The notes under the pieces were generated by a model. The model did not search any database. It was not told the origin of the DNA and saw nothing but the letters and a program-made list of their open reading frames with translations. This document shows, in pieces, positions 10,459-50,965 of a stretch of DNA of 64,000 nucleotides (the stretch's first letter is position 1; every line of letters begins with the position of its first letter). Source of the stretch: an uncultured Pseudodesulfovibrio sp. (GTDB taxonomy: Bacteria > Desulfobacterota > Desulfovibrionia > Desulfovibrionales > Desulfovibrionaceae); NCBI RefSeq assembly GCF_963664965.2, contig NZ_OY761823.1, forward strand, positions 3,717,031 to 3,781,030. The letters are read 5' to 3'. The translations under genes and the position numbers were made by a program.

Positions 10459-10621
10459 GAAAGACTAGAGGGTAAAGCTTGAAATACTTTAACTTTTTAT
10501 CTTAAGCCGACAAATGATCAGTAATTTTGGAGGTGTATTGAATGCCCCGGTTGATCAGAATTATGCTGTCAATTTAAGCAGTTTCACATGATCGAGCTTT
10601 ATATACAGAAACAAAAAACAA

Positions 10622-28700: not shown

Positions 28701-31700
28701 ATCTCCATCAAGGACGCGTCCGTCTTCGATTTCGAAGGAGACAGCATCCCCACTTCCGTCGAGGTCACCGTGACCGACGCCGACGGACTCTCCACGTCCC
28801 AGACGCTCGACATCAACGTCACCAACGTCAACGAAGGACCGTCGCTCTCATTTGATGAAGGCACTTCCGTGAACGTGGCTGAGAACACCGCGGCCGGAAC
28901 CGTCATTGCCACCGCAGCCGGGACCGACCCCGATGCGGGCGACACACTGACATATTCCGTGGCAGACGACAGCCCGTTCGCCATTGATTCGGCTACCGGT
29001 GAAATCTCCATCAAGGACGCGTCCGTCTTCGATTTCGAAGGAGACAGCATCCCCACTTCCGTCGAGGTCACCGTGACCGACGCCGACGGACTCTCCACGT
29101 CCCAGACGCTCGACATCAACGTCACCAACGTCAACGAAGGACCGTCGCTCTCATTTGATGAAGGCACTTCCGTGAACGTGGCAGAGAACACCGCGGCCGG
29201 AACCGTCATTGCCACCGCAGCAGGGACCGATCCCGACGCGGGCGATACCCTGACCTATTCCGTGGCAGACGACAGCCCGTTCGCCATTGACCCGAACACC
29301 GGTGAAATCTCCATCAAGGACGCGTCCGTCTTCGATTTCGAAGGAGACAGCATCCCCACTTCCGTCGAGGTCACCGTGACCGACGCCGACGGACTCTCCA
29401 CGTCCCAGACGCTCGACATCAACGTCACCAACGTCAACGAAGGACCGTCGCTCTCATTTGATGAAGGCACTTCCGTGAACGTGGCTGAGAACACCGCGGC
29501 CGGGACCGTCATTGCCACCGCAGCCGGGACCGACCCCGATGCGGGCGACACACTGACATATTCCGTGGCAGACGACAGCCCGTTCGCCATTGATTCGGCT
29601 ACCGGCGAAATCTCCATCAAGGACGCATCGGTCTTCGATTTCGAAGGCGACAGCATCCCCACTTCCGTCGAGGTCACCGTGACCGATGCGGACGGACTCT
29701 CCACCTCCCAGACGCTGGGCATCAACGTCACCAACGTCAACGAAGGACCGTCGCTCTCATTTGATGAAGGCACTTCCGTGAACGTGGCAGAGAACACCGC
29801 GGCCGGAACCGTCATTGCCACCGCAGCAGGGACCGATCCCGACGCAGGCGACACACTGACATATTCCGTGGCAGACGACAGCCCGTTCGCCATTGATTCG
29901 GCTACCGGTGAAATCTCCATCAAGGACGCATCGGTCTTCGATTTCGAAGGCGACAGCATCCCCACTTCGGTCGAAGTCACCGTGACCGACGCCGACGGAC
30001 TCTCCACGTCCCAGACGCTCGACATCAACGTCACCAACGTCAACGAAGGACCGTCGCTCTCATTTGATGAAGGCACTTCCGTGAACGTGGCAGAGAACAC
30101 CGCGGCCGGAACCGTCATTGCCACCGCAGCAGGGACCGATCCCGACGCGGGCGATACCCTGACCTATTCCGTGGCAGACGACAGCCCGTTCGCCATTGAT
30201 TCGGCTACCGGCGAAATCTCCATCAAGGACGCATCGGTCTTCGATTTCGAAGGCGACAGCATCCCCACTTCGGTCGAAGTCACCGTGACCGACGCCGACG
30301 GACTCTCCACGTCCCAGACGCTCGACATCAACGTCACCAACGTCAACGAAGGACCGTCGCTCTCATTTGATGAAGGCACTTCCGTGAACGTGGCAGAGAA
30401 CACCGCGGCCGGAACCGTCATTGCCACCGCAGCAGGGACCGATCCCGACGCGGGCGATACCCTGACCTATTCCGTGGCAGACGACAGCCCGTTCGCCATT
30501 GATTCGGCTACCGGCGAAATCTCCATCAAGGACGCATCGGTCTTCGATTTCGAAGGCGACAGCATCCCCACTTCGGTCGAAGTCACCGTGACCGACGCCG
30601 ACGGACTCTCCACGTCCCAGACGCTCGACATCAACGTCACCAACGTCAACGAAGGACCGTCGCTCTCATTTGATGAAGGCACTTCCGTGAACGTGGCAGA
30701 GAACACCGCGGCCGGAACCGTCATTGCCACCGCAGCAGGGACCGATCCCGACGCGGGCGATACCCTGACCTATTCCGTGGCAGACGACAGCCCGTTCGCC
30801 ATTGATTCGGCTACCGGCGAAATCTCCATCAAGGACGCATCGGTCTTCGATTTCGAAGGCGACAGCATCCCCACTTCGGTCGAAGTCACCGTGACCGACG
30901 CCGACGGACTCTCCACGTCCCAGACGCTCGACATCAACGTCACCAACGTCAACGAAGGACCGGTTGCCGTGGATGATGTCTTCGGCACCACAACCGTCGT
31001 TGATGGCGAAACCATCGACGTGACCACACCCGATTCCGGCGTCAACGTCACCACCGTCGTCAACGAATGGGCTGGCAACGGCGTCAACGTCTCGGCGCAC
31101 ACCGGCAACGGTCTGGACCCGGATACCTGGGAAGATGCGAACATCGGAACCAAGAACGTCTCCTTCAATGAAGGCGGGCAGCACTATGCATACTCCGGCA
31201 TCGCGGCCAGCGCCTCAGGCCAGATCGACGGCGGCGAAACCGACACTCTCGACGGCAGCGAAACCACGGACACCGAAATCATGTCGGTCTCCTTTGACAA
31301 GCCCATGGAAACGGTCACTCTGGAACTCTCCGCCCTGTTTGACGGACTCGAAGAATCGCCGAACGACGGCGTGGACAATCGAGGCCCGTACGACAGCGGT
31401 TATGTGGAAATGGCCCGTGTTGCGGTCTATGACACTGACGGTGTCCTGCTCGGCTATGTGGATGTATCCGGAACGAACAACGGTCTGGCGACCGTCACCA
31501 TTGATGCCGCAGATTACGGCCTGCCCATCGGCAGCGTTGCGGTCATGCCGCTCGACGACGGCGCGGGTGACAGCGGAAACAACTCCGACTTCCTGCTCCG
31601 CAGCGTGAGCGGCGAGGCTGTGGACGAAGTGACCGGCACCTATCTTGAGGACCAGCCGATCGAACTCACCGCAAACGACCTGCTCACCCATGCCAACGCG

Positions 31701-34700
31701 CAGGGTGAAACCGACTCCGACGTGGATGGCGACACACTCTCCGTCACTTCGGTCGGCAACGCCACGCACGGCACGGTCAGCATGGACGACGACGGAAACA
31801 TCACCTTTGAACCCGAAGACGGATTCTCCGGTGCGGCTACCTTTGAATACACCATCAGCGACGGCCACGGCGGCACCGATACCGCAACCGTCACGCTGAA
31901 TATCACTCCGGTCAACGATGCTCCGGTCATCGACCTGAACGACACCGGCCAACATCTGGACATCAATGCGGCAGACTCCGACTCATGGGGCTACAACCTC
32001 GTCGGCATGTATGTCACGGACGATGCGGGCAACCCGGTCGCAACCGAGGTGCTCTACCATCACACCGACGTCAACGGTCCCGAAGGGTTCGCCATCGGCG
32101 AACTGCTGACACATGTCGAAGACGGACAGACTCCGCACTTCTTCTTCCTGAACAGCGGCAACGCACGCAACAGCGTTGAGCTTACCGGCGAGGAAGGACA
32201 CACCTTCAGAGAAGACACAAGCATCACCTTCACTCAGGGCGCTGACGGCCAGTGGTACGGTACCGGCATCGACGAAACCGGCAACCCGCTGACCTTTAAG
32301 GCGTTCTTTGATGACAACTCGCTCAACCCGGACAACCACAACCGCTTCACCTACTCCGTTACCGACGAAAACGGTACCCGGACCCTGAGCATCGAGGAAT
32401 ACAACGGCCATGCCATTGACCGCGACGACATGCGGCTGACCATCACCCCGCAGGAAGACGACAGCTCCGGCTACACCACTTCCTTCACTGAAGGCGGCAG
32501 CGCCGTGTCCATTGTGGGCAACATGACCATCACCGACACAGATTCGCCTGACATGAGCAAGGCGGTCATCACCCTGACCGGCGCGCAGGCAGGCGATGTA
32601 CTCGACACCAGCGGCGTGTCCGGCCTGTTCGTAGACACCGATATCACCGAATCCGGCGACATCGTGGTCACCCTCAGCGGCAAGGCGACCCTGGCCGAAT
32701 ACCAGAACGCCATCAAGGCCATCACCTTCGACAACACCAGCAATGATCCGGTCGAAGGAACCCGCACCATAACAGTGCAGGTAACCGACGCCGCAGGCAA
32801 TGAGTCCGACGTCAGCAACTCTGCGACATCCTCCATCACTGTTACCGCACTGAATGAAGCGCCCACCAGTGACGCGGTCACCATCTCTGTGGACGAAGAC
32901 GGCTCCGTCACCGTGACGCAGGCCATGCTCCTCGCCAATGCACAGGATGCGGACGGCGACACCATGACCGCCACGGACCTCACGGTCACCGGCGCGGACG
33001 GCACCACTTACGCACTCACCGACAACGGAAACGGCACCTGGACGTTTGAACCGGGCGACAACATCGAAAGCGACTTCAGCTTCAGCTTCAACATCGACGA
33101 TGGAAATGGCGGCGTCACTCCGGTCAACGGCACCTTTGACGTGCAGCCCCTCAGTGACGCACCGACCAGCGATGCAGTCACCATCAATGTAACCGAAGAC
33201 GGTTCCGTCACCGTGACGCAGGCCATGCTCCTCGCCACCGCACAGGATGCGGACGGCGACGCCATGACCGCAAGGAACCTCACGGTTACCGGCGCGGACG
33301 GCACGACCTACGCCCTCACCGACAACGGAAACGGCACATGGACGTTCGAACCGGGCGACAACGTCGAAAGCGACTTCAGCTTCACCTTCGACATCGAAGA
33401 CGGGACCGGCGAAAGTACGCCTGTCAGCGGAACCTTCGACGTACAGCCCGTCAACGACGCTCCGGTCATCGACGGATCGGGCGCAACAGCCACTTACGAG
33501 GACGGAGACGGCGCTCTCGCCATCCTGAACGGCATGTCCATCTCGGACGTGGATTCCGACAATCTCAGCGAGGCGACCATCACCCTGAACGGAACGGAAG
33601 CGGGGGATATCCTCGACACCAGCGGCGTATCCGGCCTGTTCGTGGACACCGACACCAACGCTTTCGGCGACATCGTGATCACCCTGAGCGGCACGGCCAG
33701 CGTTGCTGAATACGAAAACGCAATCAAGTCGATCACTTTCAGCAACAACTCAGGCGACCTTGACGACGGCACCCGCACTGTTTCCGTGCAGGTGACAGAC
33801 GCCGAAGGAACCGACTCGAAGCCCAGCACGGTCGCCACCGCCACCATCGACGTGGAAGGCGGGACTGATCCCGGCATAGTCAACTACGACGTGCATGGTC
33901 AGGCGGTGACCTTCCACTCCGAAAAGGCTGACTACCAGAACATGCTCGGCATCTACACCATCGTGAATGGCAAGCCGTCTGATCCCGAAATCATCCTCAC
34001 GAACAGTAATGACGAGAGCATGCTCAAGGAAGTCATTCACACCTTTGCCGAAGATGCGGAAGTCCACTTCTTCTTCCTTCCGAACGTGGCAGGAAAGACC
34101 TTCGACACTGACGGAAACCTCCACTTCATTGCTGACGGCGACGGCTATCTCCTCGCCTCCGGAAACGACCATCTGGACGCCAAGTTCGACATGCCGCAAT
34201 TCAACCACGCCGGAGAGGAATACGGCTTCAAGTTCTCCGGCAATGCAGAAGCAGGGTTTACCGCTGAACACAGGGAAACGGTCACCGTCGGCATGGACGA
34301 CCAGTTCGTGCCGGGATTCAAGACTCCCGGTGATGACGATGACTTCAACGATCTTGTCGTCAAGGTCCAGCAAACCGATGACGGCCTGTTCGAAGGCGGC
34401 TCCGGCAACGACTACGCTGTTGGAGGCAAGGGTGACGACACACTCATCGGTGGCCGAGGCAACGACACCCTGTACGGCGATGACTGGTACGGCCAAAGGC
34501 AGGGCAATGACCATCTGGATGGCGGCAAGGGCGACGACCTCATGTACGGAGGGCGCGGCGATGACCAAATGGACGGAGGCGAGGGCCATGACATCATGTA
34601 CGGAGAGTCCGGTCATGATCTGATCAACGGAGGCTCGGGCGAAGACCTCATCTACGGCCAGTCCGGCAATGACACCATTGATGCAGGCGACAACGACGAC

Positions 34701-35198
34701 CTTGTCTATGCAGGTTCAGGAAACGACCTCCTTAACGGCGGTGCGGGTGACGACATCCTGTACGGTCAGTCCGGTGACAACCTGCTGGTCGGTGGTGCAG
34801 GCGACGATACCATGTACGGCGGCTCTGATGACGATCTGTTCATCGCAGGCGACGGCGCGGACGTCATTTACACAGGTGCCGGCAACGACACCATCTTCAT
34901 CGACCAGTCCGTGCTCGGCGAAGGGCACAACACCATCGAGGTCAGGGACTTCCATGTCGGCAAGGATGTGCTGGAATTCGGCGACAACGTGGTCAAGGAA
35001 ATCAACATCGACGACCAGAACGGCATGTCCCTTGTGGTCGGCAATGACGAAAACTCCAACGACGACGTGGTGGTCAAGCTGCTCGGCGTCACCCCGACCC
35101 AACTGGAGAACCACGGTTCCATCCACGACACCGACACCACGGCTGACGACCTCATCCAACATATGATTGACTCGGCCCACAACGGTCACAACAACTAA
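19749..35198 (+). CDS. Giant (5,149 aa) RTX-type, T1SS-substrate-like adhesin with cadherin-like, VCBS-like, lectin-like, DUF4114-like and Ca-binding nonapeptide repeats
   Basis: Single uninterrupted ORF with a strong RBS. The N-terminal roughly 100-aa module is followed by ETAAGAGAGGAGAGAY. Many VNDAPV-bounded Ig/cadherin-like units are present. There are 25 identical-length 101-aa units. A DDDDFNDLVVKV motif is present. About 17 GGxGxDxUx repeats lie at 34393-34900. The acidic C-terminal non-cleaved secretion-signal-like tail contains IEVRDFHVGKDVLEFGDNV. Confidence 0.9.
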   Translation: MAENDTTQELTRFPVSLPGDGQLKTYEVSADMLVVFDFDVAEAIFSSNGNDLVITVEGKGTIVFEDYLLLAQNDNLPTFELLDGEQITGDVYLFAFNELEEDVETAAGAGAGGAGAGAYIDDHGDLYRSLDSLQGQEDPSEDADQQSARFGTQEFANTDSTAAVNTAPKINGELNLDMNEDGTIVIRDTQILALVTDEPGSFVAVTSLTVSGGTLTQIAAGTWAFTPDQDFNGSLDVTFSVSDREFTVNGTGSIDVAAVNDAPVATDDTGAVVEDFTISGTLADHASDVDNEAGELTYSIVGDTPAGFVLTDANGSYTFDASSYDHLSEGETEDVTLTYQVTDPDGASHTAELTITISGSDDPIVISAADTDPDTINEDTPFISGQLTATDADAADNPDFDVQDIPGKYGTLHINENGSWTYTTNELAQGLDADNPGTESFTVTARNGDSLTDTETYEINLSVTGSEDPILITGDIQATVSEDYVPTTVTGTLIATDADTADTPDFDVQDLPGEYGTLHINADGTWTYTPDERAQALDGSETEPIVENFTVTARNGDSTTEIQTQNIQVTVLGQNDAPELTFSSDFINNGSFEDAEISSTGYAQGHTPEGWNLVSGSHWEVIGGERGSIGASDGNNVLDLAIGRSAPEISQEITHLEPGEYVLSVDMFDRGGQHPSDGSPSGDITIKWNGVIVATFNPDSVDWETGTVTVTVNEGETSGTLSFSSTDTDHYGNVIDNISLRPAAGTEQAVINENAENGSYVATAVGSDVDSTGLTYSIDENSPFAIDPNTGVITIKDNTSLDFETNPTITLDVTVTDGNTPVTKPLTIHLRDINEAPTGDDVTFRPLSEDGEGVHPGTLIFTEEALLNMSNAADEEGNPLSIENLTLADGRGTLVEGTDANGNPQWTFTPEDNYNGEVSFNFDISDGVNTTSLTANVNVEAVNDGPVLEFSATQSANLIQDGSFESVDIDQYDWADGYSPADWTSESGTHFEVMDGQRHGLEGASDGENVLDMAVGRTPMVVSQEVPVSEGQYVISLDMFDRGENYAGDGTDSGVLDILWNGEVVATYNPGSDDWDTGSILITVGADDPSTGTLTIVSHDGDHYGNVIDNITMHAVDTPADNTVTIDENSAGGTFIASAVGSDVDSTDLEYSISEGSPFVIDKDTGVIRLADDASLDYEASTEYTITVTVSDGDGATTTKDLTIKVGDVNEGPSLSFDEGTSVNVAENTAAGTVIATAAGTDPDAGDTLTYSVADDSPFAIDSATGEISIKDASVFDFEGDSIPTSVEVTVTDADGLSTSQTLDINVTNVNEGPSLSFDEGTSVNVAENTAAGTVIATAAGTDPDAGDTLTYSVADDSPFAIDSATGEISIKDASVFDFEGDSIPTSVEVTVTDADGLSTSQTLNINVTDVNEGPSLSFNEGTSVNVAENTAAGTVIATAAGTDPDAGDTLTYSVADDSPFAIDSATGEISIKDASVFDFEGDSIPTSVEVTVTDADGLSTSQTLNINVTDVNEGPSLSFNEGTSVNVAENTAAGTVIATAAGTDPDAGDTLTYSVADDSPFAIDPNTGEISIKDASVFDFEGDSIPTSVEVTVTDADGLSTSQTLDINVTNVNEGPSLSFDEGTSVNVAENTAAGTVIATAAGTDPDAGDTLTYSVADDSPFAIDPNTGEISIKDASVFDFEGDSIPTSVEVTVTDADGLSTSQTLDINVTNVNEGPSLSFDEGTSVNVAENTAAGTVIATAAGTDPDAGDTLTYSVADDSPFAIDSATGEISIKDASVFDFEGDSIPTSVEVTVTDADGLSTSQTLGINVTNVNEGPSLSFDEGTSVNVAENTAAGTVIATAAGTDPDAGDTLTYSVADDSPFAIDSATGEISIKDASVFDFEGDSIPTSVEVTVTDADGLSTSQTLNINVTDVNEGPSLSFNEGTSVNVAENTAAGTVIATAAGTDPDAGDTLTYSVADDSPFAIDPNTGEISIKDASVFDFEGDSIPTSVEVTVTDADGLSTSQTLDINVTNVNEGPSLSFDEGTSVNVAENTAAGTVIATAAGTDPDAGDTLTYSVADDSPFAIDSATGEISIKDASVFDFEGDSIPTSVEVTVTDADGLSTSQTLDINVTNVNEGPSLSFDEGTSVNVAENTAAGTVIATAAGTDPDAGDTLTYSVADDSPFAIDSATGEISIKDASVFDFEGDSIPTSVEVTVTDADGLSTSQTLDINVTNVNEGPSLSFDEGTSVNVAENTAAGTVIATAAGTDPDAGDTLTYSVADDSPFAIDPNTGEISIKDASVFDFEGDSIPTSVEVTVTDADGLSTSQTLDINVTNVNEGPSLSFDEGTSVNVAENTAAGTVIATAAGTDPDAGDTLTYSVADDSPFAIDSATGEISIKDASVFDFEGDSIPTSVEVTVTDADGLSTSQTLGINVTNVNEGPSLSFDEGTSVNVAENTAAGTVIATAAGTDPDAGDTLTYSVADDSPFAIDSATGEISIKDASVFDFEGDSIPTSVEVTVTDADGLSTSQTLNINVTDVNEGPSLSFNEGTSVNVAENTAAGTVIATAAGTDPDAGDTLTYSVADDSPFAIDPNTGEISIKDASVFDFEGDSIPTSVEVTVTDADGLSTSQTLDINVTNVNEGPSLSFDEGTSVNVAENTAAGTVIATAAGTDPDAGDTLTYSVADDSPFAIDSATGEISIKDASVFDFEGDSIPTSVEVTVTDADGLSTSQTLDINVTNVNEGPSLSFDEGTSVNVAENTAAGTVIATAAGTDPDAGDTLTYSVADDSPFAIDSATGEISIKDASVFDFEGDSIPTSVEVTVTDADGLSTSQTLDINVTNVNEGPSLSFDEGTSVNVAENTAAGTVIATAAGTDPDAGDTLTYSVADDSPFAIDSATGEISIKDASVFDFEGDSIPTSVEVTVTDADGLSTSQTLDINVTNVNEGPSLSFDEGTSVNVAENTAAGTVIATAAGTDPDAGDTLTYSVADDSPFAIDPNTGEISIKDASVFDFEGDSIPTSVEVTVTDADGLSTSQTLDINVTNVNEGPSLSFDEGTSVNVAENTAAGTVIATAAGTDPDAGDTLTYSVADDSPFAIDSATGEISIKDASVFDFEGDSIPTSVEVTVTDADGLSTSQTLDINVTNVNEGPSLSFDEGTSVNVAENTAAGTVIATAAGTDPDAGDTLTYSVADDSPFAIDPNTGEISIKDASVFDFEGDSIPTSVEVTVTDADGLSTSQTLDINVTNVNEGPSLSFDEGTSVNVAENTAAGTVIATAAGTDPDAGDTLTYSVADDSPFAIDSATGEISIKDASVFDFEGDSIPTSVEVTVTDADGLSTSQTLGINVTNVNEGPSLSFDEGTSVNVAENTAAGTVIATAAGTDPDAGDTLTYSVADDSPFAIDSATGEISIKDASVFDFEGDSIPTSVEVTVTDADGLSTSQTLDINVTNVNEGPSLSFDEGTSVNVAENTAAGTVIATAAGTDPDAGDTLTYSVADDSPFAIDSATGEISIKDASVFDFEGDSIPTSVEVTVTDADGLSTSQTLDINVTNVNEGPSLSFDEGTSVNVAENTAAGTVIATAAGTDPDAGDTLTYSVADDSPFAIDSATGEISIKDASVFDFEGDSIPTSVEVTVTDADGLSTSQTLDINVTNVNEGPSLSFDEGTSVNVAENTAAGTVIATAAGTDPDAGDTLTYSVADDSPFAIDSATGEISIKDASVFDFEGDSIPTSVEVTVTDADGLSTSQTLDINVTNVNEGPVAVDDVFGTTTVVDGETIDVTTPDSGVNVTTVVNEWAGNGVNVSAHTGNGLDPDTWEDANIGTKNVSFNEGGQHYAYSGIAASASGQIDGGETDTLDGSETTDTEIMSVSFDKPMETVTLELSALFDGLEESPNDGVDNRGPYDSGYVEMARVAVYDTDGVLLGYVDVSGTNNGLATVTIDAADYGLPIGSVAVMPLDDGAGDSGNNSDFLLRSVSGEAVDEVTGTYLEDQPIELTANDLLTHANAQGETDSDVDGDTLSVTSVGNATHGTVSMDDDGNITFEPEDGFSGAATFEYTISDGHGGTDTATVTLNITPVNDAPVIDLNDTGQHLDINAADSDSWGYNLVGMYVTDDAGNPVATEVLYHHTDVNGPEGFAIGELLTHVEDGQTPHFFFLNSGNARNSVELTGEEGHTFREDTSITFTQGADGQWYGTGIDETGNPLTFKAFFDDNSLNPDNHNRFTYSVTDENGTRTLSIEEYNGHAIDRDDMRLTITPQEDDSSGYTTSFTEGGSAVSIVGNMTITDTDSPDMSKAVITLTGAQAGDVLDTSGVSGLFVDTDITESGDIVVTLSGKATLAEYQNAIKAITFDNTSNDPVEGTRTITVQVTDAAGNESDVSNSATSSITVTALNEAPTSDAVTISVDEDGSVTVTQAMLLANAQDADGDTMTATDLTVTGADGTTYALTDNGNGTWTFEPGDNIESDFSFSFNIDDGNGGVTPVNGTFDVQPLSDAPTSDAVTINVTEDGSVTVTQAMLLATAQDADGDAMTARNLTVTGADGTTYALTDNGNGTWTFEPGDNVESDFSFTFDIEDGTGESTPVSGTFDVQPVNDAPVIDGSGATATYEDGDGALAILNGMSISDVDSDNLSEATITLNGTEAGDILDTSGVSGLFVDTDTNAFGDIVITLSGTASVAEYENAIKSITFSNNSGDLDDGTRTVSVQVTDAEGTDSKPSTVATATIDVEGGTDPGIVNYDVHGQAVTFHSEKADYQNMLGIYTIVNGKPSDPEIILTNSNDESMLKEVIHTFAEDAEVHFFFLPNVAGKTFDTDGNLHFIADGDGYLLASGNDHLDAKFDMPQFNHAGEEYGFKFSGNAEAGFTAEHRETVTVGMDDQFVPGFKTPGDDDDFNDLVVKVQQTDDGLFEGGSGNDYAVGGKGDDTLIGGRGNDTLYGDDWYGQRQGNDHLDGGKGDDLMYGGRGDDQMDGGEGHDIMYGESGHDLINGGSGEDLIYGQSGNDTIDAGDNDDLVYAGSGNDLLNGGAGDDILYGQSGDNLLVGGAGDDTMYGGSDDDLFIAGDGADVIYTGAGNDTIFIDQSVLGEGHNTIEVRDFHVGKDVLEFGDNVVKEINIDDQNGMSLVVGNDENSNDDVVVKLLGVTPTQLENHGSIHDTDTTADDLIQHMIDSAHNGHNN
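23376..30950 (+). repeat. Tandem array: 25 x 303 bp (101 aa cadherin-like unit), with a superimposed 1,818-bp (6-unit) higher-order repeat
   Basis: The unit NEGPSLSF[D/N]EGTSVNVAENTAAGTVIATAAGTDPDAGDTLTYSVADDSPFAID[SA/PN]TGEISIKDASVFDFEGDSIPTSVEVTVTDADGLSTSQTL[D/N/G]INVT[N/D]V recurs exactly every 303 nt from 23376 to 30950. Variant markers recur at 1,818-nt spacing. Confidence 0.95.
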
Positions 35199-35859: not shown

Positions 35860-37092
35860 ATGGGAAAACATATCATCGAGGAAGCCAAGCGCTGCCTGCA
35901 ATGCAAAAATCCTCTGTGCAGCAAGGGCTGTCCCAACAGCACCCCAGTCAATGAAATGGTCCGCCTCCTCCTTGAGGGGAAAATGCTCGAAGCGGGCGAA
36001 ATGCTGTTCAACAACAACCCGCTGTCCGTGGTTTGTTCGCTTATCTGTCCGCATGAAAATTTCTGTGAAGGACACTGTATTCTGGGCAAGAAAGGTTCAC
36101 CCGTTCAGGTCAGCGACATCGAGAACTATATTTCCCGCTATTATCTCGAACAGTTCCAGCCTCAAAAGCCCAAGCACGAAAACAACGGCAAGCGGATAGC
36201 CATCGTCGGTTCCGGCCCCGCAGGAATCACCGTGGCCTTCATCCTTGCCTCCAACGGCTTTGACGTGACCATCTTCGAATCCGAAGACAAGATCGGCGGC
36301 GTCCTCCAGTACGGCATTCCCGATTTCCGCCTGCCCAAGGAACTCCTCACCCAGCTCAAGACGATGCTGGAACGGCTCGGCGTCAAAATCCGTCCGAACA
36401 TGGTCATCGGCCCGGTGGTCACCCTCGAAGACCTCCTGCGCGACGACTACAAGGCCATTTTCATCGGAACCGGGGTCTGGAGTCCGAAACCCCTGCGCCT
36501 CAGAGGCGAAACCCTCGGGCATGTTCATTACGCCATCAACTACCTCAAGAACCCGGACGTCTACACGCTAGGGCGCAAGGTCGCTGTCATCGGCGCAGGA
36601 AACGTGGCCATGGACGTGGCCCGCACGGCACTGCGAAAAGGCGCGGAAGAGGTAACCGTACTCTATCGTCGCGGCGAAAAGGACATGACCGCCACCCAAT
36701 ACGAATACCAGTACGCCCGACTCGACGGCGTGAAGTTCGAATTCTACCGCTCCCCGCTCGAAATCGTGGATGAGGGCGTGATCTGTACGGAAACACGCAA
36801 GGAAAAGGACGGCGACGTCGTCCGCGTCGTGCCGATTGAAGGCTCGGAAAAACTCTTTCAGGCTGACTCCGTTTTCATCGCCGCGAGCCAGAACCCGCGC
36901 AACAACCTCACCGGCATCGAGATCGGAAAGACCGGCCTCATTCTGGTCAACGAGGATGGACGCACCACCCGCGAAGGCATTTTCGCTTCCGGCGACGTGG
37001 TCACCGGAGCCAAGACCGTGGCGGAAGCGGTCAACCTCTCAAAAAAATCCGCGCAGGCCATCATGGACTATGTGGCAGGACTGCCGGATTAA
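35860..37092 (+). CDS. NAD(P)H-dependent FAD/Fe-S oxidoreductase, glutamate synthase small-subunit (GltD) family
   Basis: N-terminal Cys clusters CLQCKNPLCSKGCP and CPHENFCEGHC. Dinucleotide motifs IAIVGSGPAGITVA and VAVIGAGNVAMDVA, plus GIFASGDVVTG. Confidence 0.8.
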   Translation: MGKHIIEEAKRCLQCKNPLCSKGCPNSTPVNEMVRLLLEGKMLEAGEMLFNNNPLSVVCSLICPHENFCEGHCILGKKGSPVQVSDIENYISRYYLEQFQPQKPKHENNGKRIAIVGSGPAGITVAFILASNGFDVTIFESEDKIGGVLQYGIPDFRLPKELLTQLKTMLERLGVKIRPNMVIGPVVTLEDLLRDDYKAIFIGTGVWSPKPLRLRGETLGHVHYAINYLKNPDVYTLGRKVAVIGAGNVAMDVARTALRKGAEEVTVLYRRGEKDMTATQYEYQYARLDGVKFEFYRSPLEIVDEGVICTETRKEKDGDVVRVVPIEGSEKLFQADSVFIAASQNPRNNLTGIEIGKTGLILVNEDGRTTREGIFASGDVVTGAKTVAEAVNLSKKSAQAIMDYVAGLPD

Positions 37093-39333: not shown

Positions 39334-40824
39334 ATGCAGACCGATGCGCCCCACAGCGACGCCAGAACCGTTCAGGAATACATTGACGAGACTCCCTACT
39401 GGGCTGACGGCACACCGTCACGCGACGTTCCGATGACCGGCATGCAGTGGCGCATCTGGACTCTCGCCTCGGCAGGAAAATTTTTCGAGGGGCTGGTCGT
39501 GTTCATGACCGGCGTGGCCCTGCCGCTCATCGTGCAGGAGTTCCAGCTCGACGCCATGAGCAAAGGCATGGTGGGAGCCGTCCCGCTTGTGGGCATCCTC
39601 ATCGGGGCCACGGCGCTGGGTGGTCTGGCTGACCACTTCGGCAGAAAAACGATGTTCATCATGGAAATGATCCTGTTCGCCATCTGCCTGACCCTGTTGG
39701 TCTTCAGTCCAAACTACGAATACCTGCTCGCCGCTTTGTTCGGAGTCGGGCTGTCACTTGGCTGCGACTACCCCACGGCGCACATGATCATCTCCGAGTC
39801 CATCCCGAGCAGCAACCGGGGACGGCTTGTTCTCGGCGCTTTCGGATTTCAGGCCATCGGGGCGCTTGCGGGAACAGGCGTGGGCTACCTTATCCTCATG
39901 GATGTTCCGGACATCAGCGCATGGCGCTGGATGTACGCCACAGCGGTCATTCCCGCCGTAGTCGTCGTTCTGGCACGCTTCTCCATTACGGACTCGGCAC
40001 CATGGCTCGCCTCCGTAGGAAAAATGAAGGAAGCCCGACAGGAAACCTCCCGCCTGCTTCGGCGCGAACCACCGTACCCCTCAGAAATACACCTCGCCGC
40101 CCCTCAAACACACACCAACAAAAACGACTTCACCAACAGTTACGGCAGACTTTTCACCGCACAATTCCGCAGAGCTACCATACTGGCGTCCGTCCCCTGG
40201 TTTTTGCAGGACCTCAGCACTTACGGCATCGGCATCTTTACTCCCACCATTCTCGCCAAGGCCGTCGGTGGCAGCCACGAACATGCCCACAATCTCGCAA
40301 CCCTCATTCATCAAGACATGGTGGCAGCCAAGGGAGCCGCGTTCATCGACATCCTGCTGCTCGTCGGCATAATAGGAGCCGTGCTTCTGGCTGACAGGCT
40401 CGGGCGCATCCGGCTTCAGGTATTCGGATTCATCGGCTGTGCTGCGGGCCTGTTCATCGCGACCCTGTCGCTGGATGCCCACGGAGAAATGCAGACGTTC
40501 CTTCTCTTTGCCGGATTCATGCTGTTCAGCCTCATGACCAACCTCGGGCCCAACGCCATGACATACCTCATCGCAGGTGAAGTCTTTCCCACCGCCATAC
40601 GCGGCAAGGGGGCCGGAGTCGCTGCCTCGGCAGCCAAGATTGGTGCCGCCCTGACGGCCTTCCTCTTCCCCGTCCTGCTGGCCGACCTCGGCACGAAAAC
40701 AATTCTCTACATTCTTATGGGCACATCGTTTCTCGGAGCCGCGACCACATGGCTCTATCGGATCGAAACCACAGGCATCAATCTGGACACGCTTGAGTAC
40801 GGTGACAGACAAGACTGTTCTTGA
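39334..40824 (+). CDS. MFS transporter (sugar-porter-like)
   Basis: 12-TM pattern. GLADHFGRKTMF and FPTAIRGKGAGVA motifs are typical of MFS loop 2-3 and loop 8-9. Confidence 0.75.
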   Translation: MQTDAPHSDARTVQEYIDETPYWADGTPSRDVPMTGMQWRIWTLASAGKFFEGLVVFMTGVALPLIVQEFQLDAMSKGMVGAVPLVGILIGATALGGLADHFGRKTMFIMEMILFAICLTLLVFSPNYEYLLAALFGVGLSLGCDYPTAHMIISESIPSSNRGRLVLGAFGFQAIGALAGTGVGYLILMDVPDISAWRWMYATAVIPAVVVVLARFSITDSAPWLASVGKMKEARQETSRLLRREPPYPSEIHLAAPQTHTNKNDFTNSYGRLFTAQFRRATILASVPWFLQDLSTYGIGIFTPTILAKAVGGSHEHAHNLATLIHQDMVAAKGAAFIDILLLVGIIGAVLLADRLGRIRLQVFGFIGCAAGLFIATLSLDAHGEMQTFLLFAGFMLFSLMTNLGPNAMTYLIAGEVFPTAIRGKGAGVAASAAKIGAALTAFLFPVLLADLGTKTILYILMGTSFLGAATTWLYRIETTGINLDTLEYGDRQDCS

Positions 40825-40898
40825 CTCCACCGCCGTGCTTGCCTATTCCTAATAATAGGACAAATTCCTATTTACTTTTTTGCCCTGTGAGGATGGAA

Positions 40899-42590
40899 AT
40901 GAGCCCGGTATTCGCCAAAGAAAGCAATGACGACTGGTTCCTGCCCGCCGATGTACGCGAACAACTGAAAAAAACCTTCAAGGACCTCGACAATCCGGTC
41001 ATACTTGAGACGTTCACCCGTCCCGGTTTCAATGACGAATTCAGCCAATACATGATCCGTTTCTGCACGGACCTCGCCAGACTCTCGGACAAAATCACTG
41101 TCCGCACATTCCAGATACCGTCCAGTCGGGCGGAACAACTCGGCATTACGGCATCCCCCACCCTGTGCGTCAACCCGGACGAATACCACATCCGGTTTCT
41201 CGGTGCGCCGATTGGAGAAGAAGGCAAATCATTCATCACGGCCATCATGCTCGTATCACTTGGCATGAGCGGCCTGTCCGAAGCATCCCGCCCCATTCTG
41301 GAGGCATTGAATGGAGAACGACTGGCACAGGTATTTGTCAGCCCCACCTGACCCTATTGTCCCGGCCAGGTTATGAACGCCGTCAAGTGCGCCATAGCCC
41401 GCCCCGGCCTGGTTCAGGCCGAATGCGTTGAAATGAGTGAAAACCCGGACCTCACCGCGCAACACAATGTCGGCTCGGTACCACACACCATTTTCAATCA
41501 GGGAAAGCATGACGCCCTTGGACTCATGCCCGAAGAGCGTTTCGTGGTGGAACTCGTCTACCTCAAATCGGCAGAAGAACTGCTGGCCGATGGCAAACTG
41601 CCAAAAATGGAGGCCGAAAAAACGGCATCCGGCTACGGCACCATCGAACCGGGCGAAATGGATCTCGTCATCATCGGGGCCGGACCGGCCGGTCTGACCG
41701 CGGGCATCTACGCTGTCCGGGCCGGACTCAAGGCCGTGGTCCTCGAAAAAAACATTGTCGGCGGTCAGGTCGCGCTGACCCCGGTAGTGGAGAACTATCC
41801 CGGTTTCTCCACCGTTCCCGGCAAACAGCTCATGGACATCATGAGCGAACACGCGCGCGAATATCTTCCGGTCAACGAAGGCGAAGGCGTGGAATCCATC
41901 ACGCTCGGAGACATTGCCGCCGGAGAAACCATCACCCTCACGACCAACCGCGGCATATACTCGGCCAAGGCGGTCATCCTCGCCACAGGCTCGGCATACC
42001 GGCAGATAGGAGTACCCGGTGAAACCCGTTATTTCGGGCGCGGCATCAACTACTGTGCTTCCTGCGACGGCTACCTGTACAAAGGCAAGAAAGTCGCCAT
42101 CATCGGCGGCGGCAACACGGCCCTGACCGACGCGCTACACCTGAAAAACCTTGGCGTTGACGTTACGGTCATTCATCGGCGCGATACCTTCCGCGCACAA
42201 AAGCCCTTGCAGGACTCCCTTGCCCGCGAGGAGATTCCGGTCATCTGGAATACGGCTGTCGAAACGATTGAAGGAGATGAAAAGCGAGTGACCAGTCTCC
42301 GGCTTCGAAACCTCAAGGACGATTCCATAACAGACCTTCCGGTAGACGGCTGCTTCATCGCCATCGGTCAGGTCCCCAGCACGGACCTCGCCAAGACACT
42401 CGGCGTGAAAATCAAGGAAGACGGATTCGTTGAAGTCGACACTGCCATGCGGACCAACGTTCCCCACGTCTATGCCGCAGGCGATCTCACGGGAGGACTC
42501 CAGCAGATCGTCACCGCCATCGGGGAAGGCTCAATCGCCGCAATGAGTGCATTTGAAGACATCAGCAATCCATACTGGAAAGATAAATAA
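40899..42590 (+). CDS. Probable selenoprotein: PDO/AhpF-N-terminal-like double thioredoxin-fold domain (U-P-Y-C) fused to a thioredoxin-reductase-like flavoprotein; TGA at 41349-41351 read as Sec
   Basis: Track ORFs 40821..41351 and 41373..42590 share one frame. Reading through the TGA gives VFVSPT-U-PYCPGQVMNAVKCAI. Downstream motifs are VIIGAGPAGLTAG, CASCDG, IIGGGNTALTDA and YAAGD. Confidence 0.65.
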
Positions 42591-42683: not shown

Positions 42684-44672
42684 TTGTTGCATACTTTAAG
42701 AACTGGAAACTTAACGCATTATTTAGATAGACTATACATAAAACAAAAATCGATAGACGCATACATGCCCATTCCTTCCCGCCCATTCGCCAACAAGGAT
42801 ATACCTCTGTCCTCCGAGGAAACAGGTTTTACCGACATGGAAAACCACTCTCCGCCGCACCCGGAAATGGTAGACATGGACCACGATGGCGATATGGACA
42901 TATCGGTCTCTTCCGAGAAAAAGGGAGTAAACTACTGGCTCGAAAACACTCTGGATGAAAAAGGGAACCGATTTCTCCAGCACAGTATTTTCAAGCAAAT
43001 CACTCCCACGGCGATCGGTTACGGAGACCTGAACGGAGACGATGTTCCGGATATTGTTCTGGGCCATATCTCGGGAGCCAAGGTCTTCATGGACAACGGC
43101 AAGTGGGAAATGACGGACCTTTCACTCTCCCTGCAATCACCCAGGGCTATCCTGATAGAAGACATCGACGGAGACTACCGGAAAGACCTGCTCATCAGGG
43201 ACTCCCACGATTTCTTTCTCATCAAGAATCTTCCGGGGCTCCTCGGCAGCCAGATCCTTTCCTGGCCGAATCTGGGAAACAGCAACGTGCTTTCCGTCGG
43301 TAATTTCAATGTAGCCACGGTTTCTCTCGAAATACTCACAATGGACGAGAAAAACGGTACCCTTGTGATGATCGAACATGACGGCAGGCATTGGCAGCCT
43401 GCCAAAGTCGTGACGGAAACCACAGTCAGAACACTCTCGGCGCACGACTTCGACAACGACGGTTTCACGGATGTCATTATAGGAAACGAGAACGGCGACA
43501 TCTCACTGCTGAAAAATGACGGGACCGGGAATTTCACTCGAATCGCCAATTCCGAAAAAGCCGACTTCGATATCCCTGTAGAACACTTTGAAACCGCAGG
43601 CGGGACATGGGACAACTTCCATGGGTTTCCCTCCGAGGAATTGGACGGAGTTCAAAACGTACTTTCTCCCCCGATGCACGGGTTTGAATGGTCGCACGCC
43701 CCCCGATTCACGGTTACCTCTTCGACGTCAGGAGTGGAGATACCTGACACGTCCTTTCTGAAAACGCTGCCTGATGATTCCTTTTCCATCGAAAAGTCCG
43801 ATTCATACACTTCTTCCGATCTTCTCCCCTTCACCGCCTCGGTAATCAGCGAACAGGAAAAGGATCAAAGCGGCACGGAGCAGGGCTCCGACACCATCCA
43901 AAGGGCGGACGATTCTGATGCCCAGCTTCCCCTCCCCACGGCAGGAGAAGAACTCAGGGAATGGGGACTGGAGACGCATGAACAAAACGACATGCACTCA
44001 ATTCAGGGCAGGATGGTCGACGGTTCTTCCCTCAACGACCTGTACGTACTCGGACACGACAACGACAGTGCCGACGGGAACCAAGGGAGTGATTTCATTT
44101 TCGGCAAAGGCGGAAACGACACCCTCACCGGCGGGGAAGGCAATGACGCCCTCTTCGGCGGAGACGGACGGGATGCCCTTTTCGGCGATGCAGACGATGA
44201 TTACCTCCGGGGAAACAACGGAAGCGACGCCCTTGTCGGTGGCGAAGGAGATGACTACCTCAACGGCGGTAAAGGCGACGACCTTTTATTCGGCGGACAA
44301 GGCGACGACTTTCTTTTCGGAGATAGCGGCGACGACACGCTGTATGGCGGTAACGGGCAGGACACATTCTACTATCACTCCCCCCAAGAAGGGACCGACA
44401 CCATCCGCGATTTCAACTTACAAGAAGACCTATTCGTGTTTGATTTCGAAATCGACACATACTGCTGTGTCAGGGACGAATATGACGGCAGTCTAGGCAC
44501 AAACGGTTCAGCCCTCATATGGGCCGTCTCCGAAGACGGAACTGCTGACCTCTATTACGACAGCGACACAAGCCAGACGGGCGGCGAGTATTGCATCGCC
44601 CACGTCGAATTGACCGACGGATTGCAGAACGAGACCTGCGAAGAACTCACTCCCGACGACATCCTGTCATAA
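42684..44672 (+). CDS. FG-GAP/VCBS-repeat beta-propeller-like protein with C-terminal RTX Ca-binding repeats (start uncertain)
   Basis: FG-GAP-like DxDxDGxxD loops (DMDHDGDMD, GDLNGDDVPD, EDIDGDYRKD, HDFDNDGFTD ... NDGTGNF). About 10 nonapeptide repeats, GGNDTLTGGEGNDALFGGDGRDALFGDADDDYLRGNNGSDALVGGEGDDYLNGGKGDDLLFGGQGDDFLFGDSGDDTLYGGNGQD. The track start is a TTG; ATG alternatives exist at 42765 and further downstream. Confidence 0.7.
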   Translation: MLHTLRTGNLTHYLDRLYIKQKSIDAYMPIPSRPFANKDIPLSSEETGFTDMENHSPPHPEMVDMDHDGDMDISVSSEKKGVNYWLENTLDEKGNRFLQHSIFKQITPTAIGYGDLNGDDVPDIVLGHISGAKVFMDNGKWEMTDLSLSLQSPRAILIEDIDGDYRKDLLIRDSHDFFLIKNLPGLLGSQILSWPNLGNSNVLSVGNFNVATVSLEILTMDEKNGTLVMIEHDGRHWQPAKVVTETTVRTLSAHDFDNDGFTDVIIGNENGDISLLKNDGTGNFTRIANSEKADFDIPVEHFETAGGTWDNFHGFPSEELDGVQNVLSPPMHGFEWSHAPRFTVTSSTSGVEIPDTSFLKTLPDDSFSIEKSDSYTSSDLLPFTASVISEQEKDQSGTEQGSDTIQRADDSDAQLPLPTAGEELREWGLETHEQNDMHSIQGRMVDGSSLNDLYVLGHDNDSADGNQGSDFIFGKGGNDTLTGGEGNDALFGGDGRDALFGDADDDYLRGNNGSDALVGGEGDDYLNGGKGDDLLFGGQGDDFLFGDSGDDTLYGGNGQDTFYYHSPQEGTDTIRDFNLQEDLFVFDFEIDTYCCVRDEYDGSLGTNGSALIWAVSEDGTADLYYDSDTSQTGGEYCIAHVELTDGLQNETCEELTPDDILS

Positions 44673-48547: not shown

Positions 48548-48907
48548 TCATTTTCGGGAAATATAGCAAAGTAAAGCTGCTGAGAATATCCATAGGCACC
48601 CAGTAAAAATGACCACACCTGATGGATTATAATACAAGATCACCGTCGAAGCTCCAAATAACGCAAGCAACAACTTAAGGAGATTAATGGCAAGGACATA
48701 TTTTTGAACAGAAAAAAAGGCTATTGAAATACATATAAAAAACAGCAGGCTGTGGTCTACTGGGAAAAAGCCACCTGAACGATGTAATAGATTTATATAT
48801 TTGAAAGATAACGGAAAGATGAAAACAAAAACGATACACCACAAAACAATATTGTTGTTTTGTGTCAGTTTCAATTTCCTCAACACTTCCCGCCTCCATG
48901 TAACCAC
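48548..48907 (-). CDS. Small 4-TM membrane protein, candidate immunity protein for the adjacent Rhs C-terminal toxin
   Basis: 119-aa ORF (GTG start, no internal Met) in very AT-rich DNA, immediately downstream of the rhs stop. Four hydrophobic helices are present. Confidence 0.4.
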   Translation of the reverse strand: MVTWRREVLRKLKLTQNNNIVLWCIVFVFIFPLSFKYINLLHRSGGFFPVDHSLLFFICISIAFFSVQKYVLAINLLKLLLALFGASTVILYYNPSGVVIFTGCLWIFSAALLCYISRK

Positions 48908-48942
48908 TGGGGCGGTCTACCCGCCCCAGTGGTTTATTTTGT

Positions 48943-50142
48943 TTAATTGCCTATTCTTTCTTTTGCTTTATTGATTCTTTTTTTAAGAATATCCTCATCT
49001 GTATCTGTAAAATATGAATCAATAAAAGCCTTTGTCTTGCTATAGGTATCAGCTTCACGGTCCAATTCTTTACGCATCTTCCAATCATTTTCGTCGGTAT
49101 AATTCGCTTTTTGATCACGAAGGCCTTTTTGTACTTTTTCCTTCGTATAATGACTCATAAAAGGCGAAACTAAAGGGTCAGCAAATACTTCAACAATACT
49201 TCTTCCAGATGGAATTTTTTCACCATATTCATTTTTCAACAACCCCAACGGATCATTCGCATTAACAGGATCATCCAGACAATACCCATACCAGTCCGAA
49301 TCCCCGCCCGCATCGCCTATCGGATCAGGCACGGTCCAACGGCTTGTGTACGTGTCATAATCCCGAAAGCCGAACCTGACGAATCCCAAATCGCGGTCAT
49401 GCAGGCCGCCTGCGAAGCCGAGGGGGATGGCAAAACCGGGATTGCTGTCCTCGATGATGCCGCCGAACGGGTCGTACTGGATAGCCTTTATCACGTTGCC
49501 GCTTGTGTCGGCAACAACGCGGAGGCTGCCGACCTGATCGTGGAAGAGGTAGGCTACAGCTCCGTCGTCACGGCGCATGGCGTAGGGTGTGCGTTCGCCG
49601 TCTTCGTAGGCGAATTCGTAGGACTTTCTGCCATCCCAGTATCCGGCGAGGCGGATGAAATCGAGCCATTCGTATGCCTCGACCAGTTCGCCGTTGCAGT
49701 ATTTCGCGATACGGCGGCCTTCGTCGTCGTGGCGGAAGGTGAAGGTGCGGCCTGCGTCTTTCTGGTCGGCTTTCAGCAGGCGATAATCCGGGGCGTATTC
49801 ATAGAGCGTATACTTCCCTTTGTGGTTCCACATGCTGCGGAAGCCGTTGTTATCGTGCATGTAGCTGTTTTTCCCGGCGCGCGAGAGGCGGTTGTCCATG
49901 TCGTATTCGTAGCGACGAAGGTCGCCTTCCACGGATTTTGGGAAGCTGTCGCATGCGCGGCGTCCGGCGCGGTCATACCAGCAATCGCACACGGGCCAGC
50001 CATTGCGTTCGCATTTGGCGAGGCGGCCCGCCTTGTCGTAAGCGTAGGTCCATTTGACGGGTTCGCCCACCACGGTTTCGGTTTTCTCGATAATGCGACC
50101 CTGTGGGTCGTGGCTCAACGTATAACTGTAAGGATTTTTCAT
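48943..50142 (-). CDS. Short RHS repeat-associated core protein with a variable C-terminal (toxin-like) domain
   Basis: YD/RHS repeats (YAYDKAGRL, YDRAGRR, YEYDMDNRL, FRHDDEGRRI). Core end: QYDPFGG....GFAGGLHDRDLGFVRFGFRDYDTYTSRWTVPDPIG ... DPLGL. A 98-aa Lys/Asp/Glu-rich tail follows. The start was set at MKNPYSY, preceded by TAAGGAGGG. Confidence 0.8.
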   Translation of the reverse strand: MKNPYSYTLSHDPQGRIIEKTETVVGEPVKWTYAYDKAGRLAKCERNGWPVCDCWYDRAGRRACDSFPKSVEGDLRRYEYDMDNRLSRAGKNSYMHDNNGFRSMWNHKGKYTLYEYAPDYRLLKADQKDAGRTFTFRHDDEGRRIAKYCNGELVEAYEWLDFIRLAGYWDGRKSYEFAYEDGERTPYAMRRDDGAVAYLFHDQVGSLRVVADTSGNVIKAIQYDPFGGIIEDSNPGFAIPLGFAGGLHDRDLGFVRFGFRDYDTYTSRWTVPDPIGDAGGDSDWYGYCLDDPVNANDPLGLLKNEYGEKIPSGRSIVEVFADPLVSPFMSHYTKEKVQKGLRDQKANYTDENDWKMRKELDREADTYSKTKAFIDSYFTDTDEDILKKRINKAKERIGN

Positions 50143-50289
50143 TAGACCCTCCTTAGAGTTTCGTCTTTGCGGACCATTCCGAAAGATCGCGGAGAGTATA
50201 CCCCCGGTTTTAGGGGCAGGATGAAAACGGGCGAAAAGGACCCCATATAGGGCGAAAAAAGCATAACTTGGAGGGTTGACAGGGTTTTT

Positions 50290-50965
50290 GAAAGGCAGGA
50301 AAGGCAAAATGCAGAAATCCAGTCGCTTTCGCTCCTTCCGTGTCCTGCGCGGACGGCGGTCCTTTCTTTTTCCAAAGCAGAAAAGAAAGGACGAAAGAAA
50401 CTGCTTTTGTTCGTAACTTCACCGCCTGGTAGCTTCGAAGCCAAGAATCTGATCAAACCGGGCCGCTCCCGAATCCAGTCGCCGGGGACGGCTCCGGATT
50501 CGATAGAGCCGCGGCTTCCGTTTTGTCAGCTTCTAGGCTCCGAAGCTAAGGGCTATTGCCGGTCTTCGTGTAGAACAAACATGAAAGGCAAGCAGGGAAA
50601 CAATAGATGGATTTTCGTTGCAGCACTTGCCTTTCGCTCCCTTAACAATCGAAGTGCCCCGATTAGCCAATTAAACCTCACAAGCCTTAGAAGCTGACTG
50701 AGAGGGGAAGGCGGATTTGGTGACGGGATATGTATGAATCAACATAGTCCCGTACCTGCCGGAATGGCAGGGACTACGCTTTTCATGGAGGGGAGCCGCC
50801 CCGATCAGATCAGATTCTTGGCGGTGAGGGCCTGGCGGGTAAATCAAGGAATCGGGGGTTTCTTTCGTTCTTTCTTGGGCCCCAGCCAAGAAAGAACCGC
50901 CGTCCTCGTAGGACATGGAAGGAGCAAAAGCGACTGGATTTCTGTCTTTTGCCTTTTGCCTTTTG
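50290..50965. repeat. About 660-bp nested imperfect palindrome (foldback/MITE-like element or long structured RNA)
   Basis: The outer arms, 50300-50370 and 50890-50958, are about 90% complementary. Further complementary blocks are 50385-50400/50858-50876, 50441-50470/50791-50820, 50524-50542/50682-50700 and 50585-50593/50624-50634. Local hairpins lie at 50471-50501 and 50745-50778. Confidence 0.75.

Follow-up and report, generated by a model that had tools for sequence, protein, structure and literature searches.

A predicted selenocysteine codon at the N-terminal redox centre of an AhpF-like disulfide reductase from an uncultured Pseudodesulfovibrio

A TGA triplet that falls exactly on the first catalytic cysteine of a redox motif may end one gene or encode selenocysteine (Sec) within another. 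This question is raised by a locus of an uncultured Pseudodesulfovibrio sp. (Desulfobacterota; Desulfovibrionaceae), which lies in a stretch of 64,000 nucleotides (assembly GCF_963664965.2, contig NZ_OY761823.1, positions 3,717,031 to 3,781,030), hereafter the window, whose own numbering is used throughout. An earlier reading made without database searches (the sequence-only reading) had proposed that two open reading frames (ORFs), 40821..41351 and 41373..42590, are halves of one missed selenoprotein gene joined at its Sec codon. Its observation was confirmed, its interpretation was supported overall, and every part of it that could be tested held. Positions 40899-42590 of the forward strand, on which all features of the gene lie, very probably form a single gene for an AhpF-like disulfide reductase of ~61 kDa, in which UGA 41349 would encode Sec.

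One reading frame across the UGA

Between the two ORFs, which share a frame, lie just TGA 41349-41351 and seven sense codons (41352..41372), as the sequence-only reading had stated and as read-through translation bore out. The TGA is in frame with both 40899-41348 and 41352-42590; the product read across it is ...AQVFVSPT-U-PYCPGQVMNAVKCAI..., and the predicted peptide spanning the Sec residue is ...VFVSPT-U-PYCPGQVMNAVK. The gene most likely starts at ATG 40899 (MSPVF...), since this start matches the homolog N-termini MSPLF and MTPLF and lies 5 nt 3' of a Shine-Dalgarno-like GAGGA (40889..40893); TTG 40821, the start assigned by the ORF tool, overlaps the 3' end of the upstream gene. From this ATG to the TAA stop at 42588-42590, the gene would comprise 563 codons, including the UGA as residue 151, with a predicted product of ~60.9 kDa. 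TGA terminates 12 of the 32 long ORFs in the window, and the upstream transporter ORF ends on one too (TGA 40822-40824). TGA is therefore an ordinary stop here, and a reassigned genetic code was rejected as an explanation. A scan of the window for other in-frame TGA codons with a redox-motif context, judged by that context, yielded none that was credible.

The TGA occupies the first position of a CPYC motif, giving U-P-Y-C (41349..41360), and aligns with a cysteine, Cys151, that is invariant in 45 Cys orthologs and with Cys129 of Escherichia coli AhpF, which places it where the sequence-only reading had put it. That reading had also called for an alignment of homologs at this codon. Among the 120 best protein clusters, 96 were continuous proteins of ~560 aa with CPYC, and none of the 120 carried an annotated U; the Cys orthologs are full-length (557-570 aa, 70-80% identity) and encoded by single continuous genes. 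Another 21 clusters consisted of ~404-aa proteins, all beginning at the Met just past the TGA (M[NSH]A[IV]K...). All ten of these that were checked as DNA contained TGA at the identical codon, preceded by an open frame that gene finders had called as a separate 150-aa ORF. A genome scan of 80 loci found TGC or TGT at the codon in 79 and TGA in one, a ratio that is biased because part of the scan was seeded with a pattern containing Cys. A metagenome scan with the pattern CCN-NNN-TGA-CCN-TAY-TGY-CCN-GGN-CA returned 61 matches, of which 18 were true orthologs, all with a thioredoxin reductase (TrxR) continuation of ~405-411 aa or truncated by the contig end; the remaining 43 had no ORF context and were discarded as chance matches. 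In total, 19 distinct orthologous sequences from independent assemblies bear the TGA, and its position at the catalytic cysteine is therefore not a product of chance.

The TGA forms fell into at least three separate lineages of a midpoint-rooted neighbor-joining tree computed without support values, and within Pseudodesulfovibrio the Sec and Cys forms were interleaved. As read from this tree, the scatter is that of a dynamic exchange between Cys and Sec, as has been described in thiol oxidoreductases (PMC1794560). One TGC ortholog (L005, from the metagenome-assembled genome (MAG) Pseudodesulfovibrio sp. MAG6, codon at 4451) is nested within the Sec clade and has lost both of the hairpins that follow the codon in its relatives (-5.9 and -0.9 kcal/mol), which fits a reversion from Sec to Cys and subsequent decay of the RNA element. 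Full-length Cys orthologs of ~47-52% identity were also present on MAG contigs labelled as archaeal (Thermoplasmata, Hydrothermarchaeota and Methanobacteriota; L027, L038, L045, L054, L068-L071 and L073), reflecting either lateral transfer or mis-binning.

Selection was assessed by comparing the window copy with 11 Sec orthologs at synonymous divergences (dS) of 0.3 to >2. The ratio of nonsynonymous to synonymous divergence (dN/dS) was 0.08-0.30 5' of the TGA and 0.055-0.115 3' of it. Even the closest relative (dS 0.30-0.39) gave a dN/dS of 0.06-0.09, a degree of purifying selection unlike that expected had decoding been lost. These values, the intact frames of both halves, and the presence of the TGA in 19 distinct sequences diverged to dS >1 effectively refute the idea that the gene is a pseudogene or that the TGA arose as an error in sequencing or assembly. 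A nonsense mutation of TGC or TGT to TGA would require just a single base, but the probability left to this reading is negligible.

The codons immediately 3' of the UGA are more telling. In the 12 Sec sequences (the window copy and its 11 orthologs), the residues P-Y-C-P-G-Q are invariant as protein, while the underlying third codon positions vary in five of the six codons and the first and second positions in none of 12; the seventh codon (V/S/T) is the only one among 41352-41372 that changes its residue. Variation confined to third positions across 41352-41369 shows that the supposed spacer is coding and translated in the frame of the TGA, with no intergenic interval, a signature that is incompatible with termination at 41351 and re-initiation at 41373. 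It thereby opposes the view that the locus holds two real genes, with the UGA ending an N-terminal protein of 150 residues and a TrxR-like protein of 405 residues starting independently at ATG 41373. Gene callers do split all Sec forms in this manner (150 aa + 404 aa), and the 404-aa product is entered in RefSeq and GenBank as an 'FAD-dependent oxidoreductase' (WP_321513688.1) or a 'hypothetical protein' (BDQ38597.1). An ATG 24 nt past the TGA is also conserved in the main clade, whereas the divergent Sec forms L098, L106 and L141 have no Met at that position. The sequence-only reading had objected that the second ORF would begin in the middle of a fold and without an obvious Shine-Dalgarno sequence, and both objections stood: dividing the gene there interrupts the second thioredoxin fold and takes away its CxxC, and no convincing Shine-Dalgarno sequence precedes ATG 41373. 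All Cys orthologs, moreover, are fused. Two separate genes are thus very improbable, and a single gene read through the UGA is preferred.

Domain architecture and proposed electron path

The read-through protein was expected to join a domain like that of protein disulfide oxidoreductases (PDO) and the AhpF N-terminus to a complete TrxR-like module, and database comparisons substantiated both assignments. The N-terminal domain (40899..41564) comprises two thioredoxin-fold units, the first without CxxC and the second with U/CxxC in the form of UPYC, which is the arrangement of the TIGR02187 family. The TIGR02187 profile (PDO_seleno_TRX) aligned over residues 18-219 (profile positions 3-206 of 209) with 154.1 bits, short of its curated equivalog cutoff of 185, and Pfam PF13192 (Thioredoxin_3) matched residues 144-220, directly across the TGA. 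The N-terminal 234 residues further matched PDO/glutaredoxin-like proteins of archaea and Aquifex in PDB (2ywm, 1a8l and 2hls) and the isolated N-terminal domain of AhpF (1zyn).

The C-terminal part is a flavoprotein module of the low-Mr TrxR type (residues 253-556; 41655..42566), recognized by Foldseek and by Pfam PF07992 (Pyr_redox_2; 192.6 bits, residues 254-544). TIGR01292 scored 331.2 bits, just below its cutoff of 343.45, with the motifs of low-Mr TrxR in place, and TrxR structures in PDB matched the module at an E value of 1e-73. The four motifs listed by the sequence-only reading (GAGPAG, CASCDG, GGGNTA and YAAGD) were all found, as was HRRDTFR. GAGPAG (41676..41693) is the FAD-binding motif. 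The redox-active CASC (Cys386/Cys389; 42054..42065) lies in the pyridine-nucleotide domain, aligns with C345-P-H-C348 of E. coli AhpF, and is invariant in the 45 orthologs. The pyridine-nucleotide binding segment GGGNTA ... HRRD (42105..42185) is TrxR-like and, judged from established TrxR motifs, probably of the NADPH type; in the alignment with AhpF, HRRD occupies the position of LLEF.

Considered as a whole, the protein has the architecture of AhpF: an N-terminal double thioredoxin fold, a TrxR-like module and both CxxC centres. The AhpF profile TIGR03140 spans its entire length, at 299.9 bits against an unreached cutoff of 502.9, and intact AhpF structures in PDB (4o5q and 1hyu) match over the whole protein. 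BLASTP aligned residues 14-553 with E. coli AhpF at 28% identity, pairing codon 151 with Cys129 of C129-H-N-C132 and CASC386-389 with Cys345/Cys348. The fold was taken from an AlphaFold (AF2) model of a Cys ortholog of 80% identity (mean confidence, pLDDT, 82.6), for which the three best Foldseek matches in PDB were intact AhpF (4xvg, 4o5q and 1hyu; ~547 columns, E 1e-45). Because profile matches, the AhpF alignment and the predicted fold agree, the protein is AhpF-like: a double thioredoxin fold of the PDO type is fused to a low-Mr TrxR, and the UGA falls on the residue of the N-terminal CxxC that makes the attack. Domain order, the two redox centres and the motifs for cofactor binding are established at the level of the primary sequence.

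An electron path can be proposed from the biochemistry of AhpF and TrxR. NAD(P)H would reduce FAD, with NADPH the probable donor given that HRRD is an established TrxR motif, and FAD would in turn reduce Cys386/Cys389 of CASC. The CASC dithiol would then reduce a selenenylsulfide between Sec151 and Cys154 of Sec151-Pro-Tyr-Cys154 in the PDO-like domain, a centre that would replace the CPYC disulfide. Sec would stand in place of the attacking, solvent-exposed residue (AhpF Cys129), and its selenolate would attack a substrate disulfide, whether of a protein or of a peroxiredoxin.

RNA downstream of the UGA and its decoding

Recoding of the UGA would be directed by an mRNA element within the 75 nt that follow, and the coding sequence there bears the mark of a second function. 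Across the 12-sequence Sec clade, synonymous diversity reached its minimum for the whole 563-codon gene at codons +13..+24 past the UGA (41388..41423), that is, 40-75 nt downstream. This stretch ranked first of 552 sliding windows (z -3.8 to -4.1), at all window sizes tried and with or without the L084 subclade. Three Cys-ortholog sets showed nothing unusual over the same region (rank 128-197, z -0.35 to -0.77). A constraint present in the Sec forms and absent from all three Cys sets points to an overlapping functional RNA element that exists only where the UGA does.

RNA folding, which the sequence-only reading had suggested for the region near the UGA, gave two adjacent hairpins. Hairpin 1 (41364..41404), a candidate for part of the selenocysteine insertion sequence (SECIS) or for a spacer helix, has its core at 41369-41399 (GGUUAUG..CGCC-GUCAA-G(U)GCG..CAUAGCC). 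Its energy ranges from -15 to -24 kcal/mol across the clade of the window copy, with 93% of cells paired and just one pair changed on both sides. Hairpin 2 (41405..41421; CGGCCUG-GUU-CAGGCCG) is the best candidate for the element bound by SelB, and the deepest eight-codon minimum of synonymous diversity (+16..+23) coincides with it. This is the hairpin that had been noticed by eye as GGCCTG-GTT-CAGGCC at 41406-41420, which extends to 7 bp if C41405/G41421 is counted; its loop spacing is 60 nt from the UGA. In most relatives it takes the form GGUCU-GGUCA-AGGCC, and the one site in it that often varies, nt 60 (C/U), forms a pair with G70 in both states. L155 retains it through a compensatory change from G59-C71 to A59-U71, brought about by Gly-to-Asp and Ala-to-Val substitutions. 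Hairpin 2 abuts the closing pair of the 41-nt hairpin 1, and about 12 single-stranded nt lie between the UGA and this structured block.

Neither hairpin fits the consensus. As given in the review PMC13188914, the model of the bacterial SECIS (bSECIS) calls for a loop of 3-9 nt with G in its two initial positions, an upper stem of 4 bp or more, a distance of 16-37 nt after the UGA and a minimum free energy of -7.5 kcal/mol or lower; the same review states that some real bSECIS elements fail this consensus. Hairpin 1 lies at a suitable distance, but its upper stem is interrupted and it lacks a conserved loop G in relatives. The sequence-only reading had pointed to the second hairpin while declining to identify a SECIS with confidence. 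The hairpin sequence is where that reading had placed it, in the most synonymously constrained stretch of the gene in Sec forms, and the caution was justified, because no element in the gene fits the consensus model. The model itself was dropped as a criterion, because its matches, in 7 of 20 Sec sequences and 14 of 46 Cys sequences, did not discriminate between the two forms here. Mean folding energy past the codon was likewise discarded (-19.5 kcal/mol for Sec and -19.2 for Cys forms). Searches against Rfam found no SECIS-like or other family at the gathering score in the whole window, and none at E <= 10 around the site.

Hairpins that fit the consensus model occur in sister clades (L084, L086, L109, L155-L158, L098 and L106). 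A prediction was made from protein sequences: members of a 'P[DE]LV' Sec subgroup, in which substitutions disrupt hairpin 2, were expected to possess the proximal hairpin of L084, L086 and L109. The prediction held in all three newly fetched members, which contain CGG(A/G)CA-GGUCA-UGUCCG at a 17-nt spacing and conform to the consensus. Other proximal hairpins with GGU loops occur in L098/L106 and in L141. In the group of the window copy (10 distinct sequences), no proximal canonical hairpin is present, and hairpins 1 and 2 are always found. The groups that define this distribution amount to only about four lineages. The conclusion drawn is that a SECIS exists and is non-canonical in the window; it most likely involves the hairpins at 41364-41404 and 41405-41421, with hairpin 2 as the presumed SelB-binding part. 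It is possible, though on present evidence doubtful, that the orthologs use different SECIS solutions, such that the clade of the window copy lost the proximal hairpin and depends on a G-U-loop hairpin located distally, 57-73 nt past the UGA; hairpin 1 could then serve as a folded spacer. If true, this would represent a natural relocation of a SECIS and long-distance recoding by bacterial Sec machinery.

Several observations weigh against Sec decoding and its proposed RNA element. Hairpin covariation is weak, with scores not above those of shuffled alignments (RNAalifold and pair counting), and the hairpins, being conserved yet hardly covarying, are not proof of structure. Two close Cys orthologs (L003 and L004) have hairpin 2 as well, and it may therefore follow in part from the codons for G-L-V-K-A. 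Once the bSECIS constraints were re-implemented, no hairpin of the window, nor of most of its clade, fitted them. The genes selA, selB and selD and a tRNA-Sec were not found within the 64-kb window, whose one tRNA is for Ala, and neither a peroxiredoxin gene nor any other partner gene lies next to the locus, with no AhpC homolog in the window or at the Sec-clade loci.

The absence of Sec machinery from the window and of a consensus SECIS from the gene would also agree with read-through by something other than Sec-tRNA, either near-cognate insertion of Trp or Cys or low-level leaky termination. Such read-through would not account for a UGA placed exactly at the catalytic Cys of a CxxC, a classic site of Sec/Cys exchange where Trp would inactivate the centre, nor for a structure-like synonymous constraint confined to TGA-bearing genes, nor for the canonical bSECIS-type hairpins of sister clades, with GGUCA/GGU loops 17 nt past the UGA. 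Although tblastn with E. coli SelA, SelB and SelD matched neither the window nor any of the fetched loci (1.2 Mb in all), ARAGORN detected a single tRNA-Sec across the same material, on the contig of a Sec ortholog. This tRNA (PPCM01000028.1; L145 10823-10916, reverse strand; anticodon TCA; Rfam RF01852, 78.7 bits) is located 6.2 kb upstream of the ortholog (L089/L145) on the same strand; selA and selB are not adjacent to it on that contig. Desulfovibrio species are recorded users of Sec (PMC1794560). Read-through without Sec-tRNA is accordingly very improbable, and insertion of Sec at UGA 41349 is the decoding that the comparative data argue for.

Genomic context and relation to known systems

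The genes around the locus encode an MFS transporter, an FG-GAP/RTX protein, a TetR regulator and a TRAP transporter, and neighbours differ among orthologs. Directly downstream lies a gene for a 662-aa protein with FG-GAP and RTX calcium-binding repeats (42684-44672, forward strand); the order MFS-selenoprotein-FG-GAP/RTX is common to L085 (GCA_942491395.1) and is not found at other Sec orthologs. A 410-aa protein with Fer4_20 and Pyr_redox_2 domains, encoded 3.8 kb upstream (35860-37092, forward strand) and syntenic with L081/L082, resembles the glutamate synthase small subunit or dihydropyrimidine dehydrogenase. At a distance of 1-3 kb downstream and on the opposite strand, AhpC-like peroxiredoxin genes accompany the Cys orthologs L034, L039, L046, L051, L061 and L064, which are mostly labelled Solidesulfovibrio and otherwise belong to unclassified MAGs; these peroxiredoxin genes are a hint of a physiological partner.

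Farther away, a single ORF of 5149 codons (19749-35198, forward strand), whose repeats are of the cadherin, Big_9 and bacterial cadherin-like types and end in RTX nonapeptide repeats at the C-terminus, resembles a giant adhesin, probably exported by type I secretion. The region 10600-12850, with a methyltransferase-like ORF (10622-11515, reverse strand) and short fragments, may have been acquired horizontally, as its ORFs have a GC content at third codon positions (GC3) of 0.34-0.49, compared with 0.55-0.84 in most others. At 48548-50307 (reverse strand), an RHS/YD-repeat (teneurin YD-shell) fragment of 454 aa and the small ORF that follows it, with a GC3 of 0.38, could represent a toxin tip and its immunity gene.

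A Sec-containing fusion of the AhpF-like/TrxR type was not found in the literature searched; the fused form was found neither among the selenoproteins of two reviews searched by term (PMC13188914; PMC9312934) nor as a U-annotated protein in the 120 best clusters. What appears new is the fused AhpF-like architecture bearing a predicted Sec, its systematic truncation in databases and a possible change, specific to the clade, from a canonical SECIS to a distal candidate. The window gene and its Sec-type orthologs are entered as an 'FAD-dependent oxidoreductase' or 'hypothetical' protein of 404 aa or shorter (for example WP_321513688.1, WP_319542182.1 and BDQ38597.1), so that databases lack the N-terminal redox domain and the selenocysteine, as do tallies of the selenoproteomes of sulfate reducers. 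BDQ38597.1 is the entry for the Sec ortholog of Pseudodesulfovibrio nedwellii. The protein would be a self-contained NAD(P)H-to-selenenylsulfide reductase, and its close Cys versions provide a natural Sec/Cys pair for studying the role of selenium at a thioredoxin-fold centre in strict anaerobes. The clade-specific hairpin position likewise offers a tractable test of the maximum distance between SECIS and UGA in bacteria.

The Sec-bearing domain is of a known kind, that of the 'AhpF N-terminal domain homolog' selenoproteins (PDO, TIGR02187), in which replacement of Cys by Sec at the CxxC is expected. Those proteins, too, have a double thioredoxin fold with Sec first in the CxxC of the second unit, and they exhibit the same Cys/Sec exchange in a thiol oxidoreductase (PMC1794560; PMC13188914). 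The TIGR02187 model ends at 209 positions, whereas here the domain (residues 18-219) is fused to a full TrxR module in a protein of 563 aa. AhpF of E. coli and Salmonella (4O5Q and 1HYU), the top structural match, shares the three-part architecture and the equivalent CxxC positions, but differs in having Cys129 rather than Sec, LLEF rather than HRRD and only 28% identity, and the window gene and its Sec clade lack an adjacent ahpC. The Cys orthologs of Pseudodesulfovibrio, Salidesulfovibrio, Megalodesulfovibrio and others, annotated as 'FAD-dependent oxidoreductase / thioredoxin reductase', are 53-80% identical over the full length, with identical domains and motifs; they differ from the window gene in their TGC or TGT at codon 151 and in lacking the downstream synonymous-site constraint.

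In the PDO and TrxR pairs of archaea and thermophiles, and in mammalian Sec-containing TrxR and thioredoxin glutathione reductase, electrons pass from NAD(P)H through FAD and a dithiol to a second, more reactive centre, which contains Sec in mammals. The protein described here differs from the former in the covalent fusion of the two partners. It differs from mammalian TrxR in the location of its predicted Sec, which lies in an N-terminal thioredoxin-fold domain joined to a TrxR of the bacterial low-Mr type, and not in a GCUG tail at the C-terminus. At the RNA level, the candidate element resembles the consensus bacterial SECIS of the E. coli fdhF type, as described in PMC13188914, in being a stem-loop within the coding sequence 3' of the UGA, and hairpin 2 and the hairpins of the sister clades likewise open a small apical loop with G-G-U or G-U. 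The G-U-loop hairpin of the window departs from this type in its position, starting 57 nt past the UGA with a loop spacing of 60 nt, compared with 16-37 nt in the consensus.

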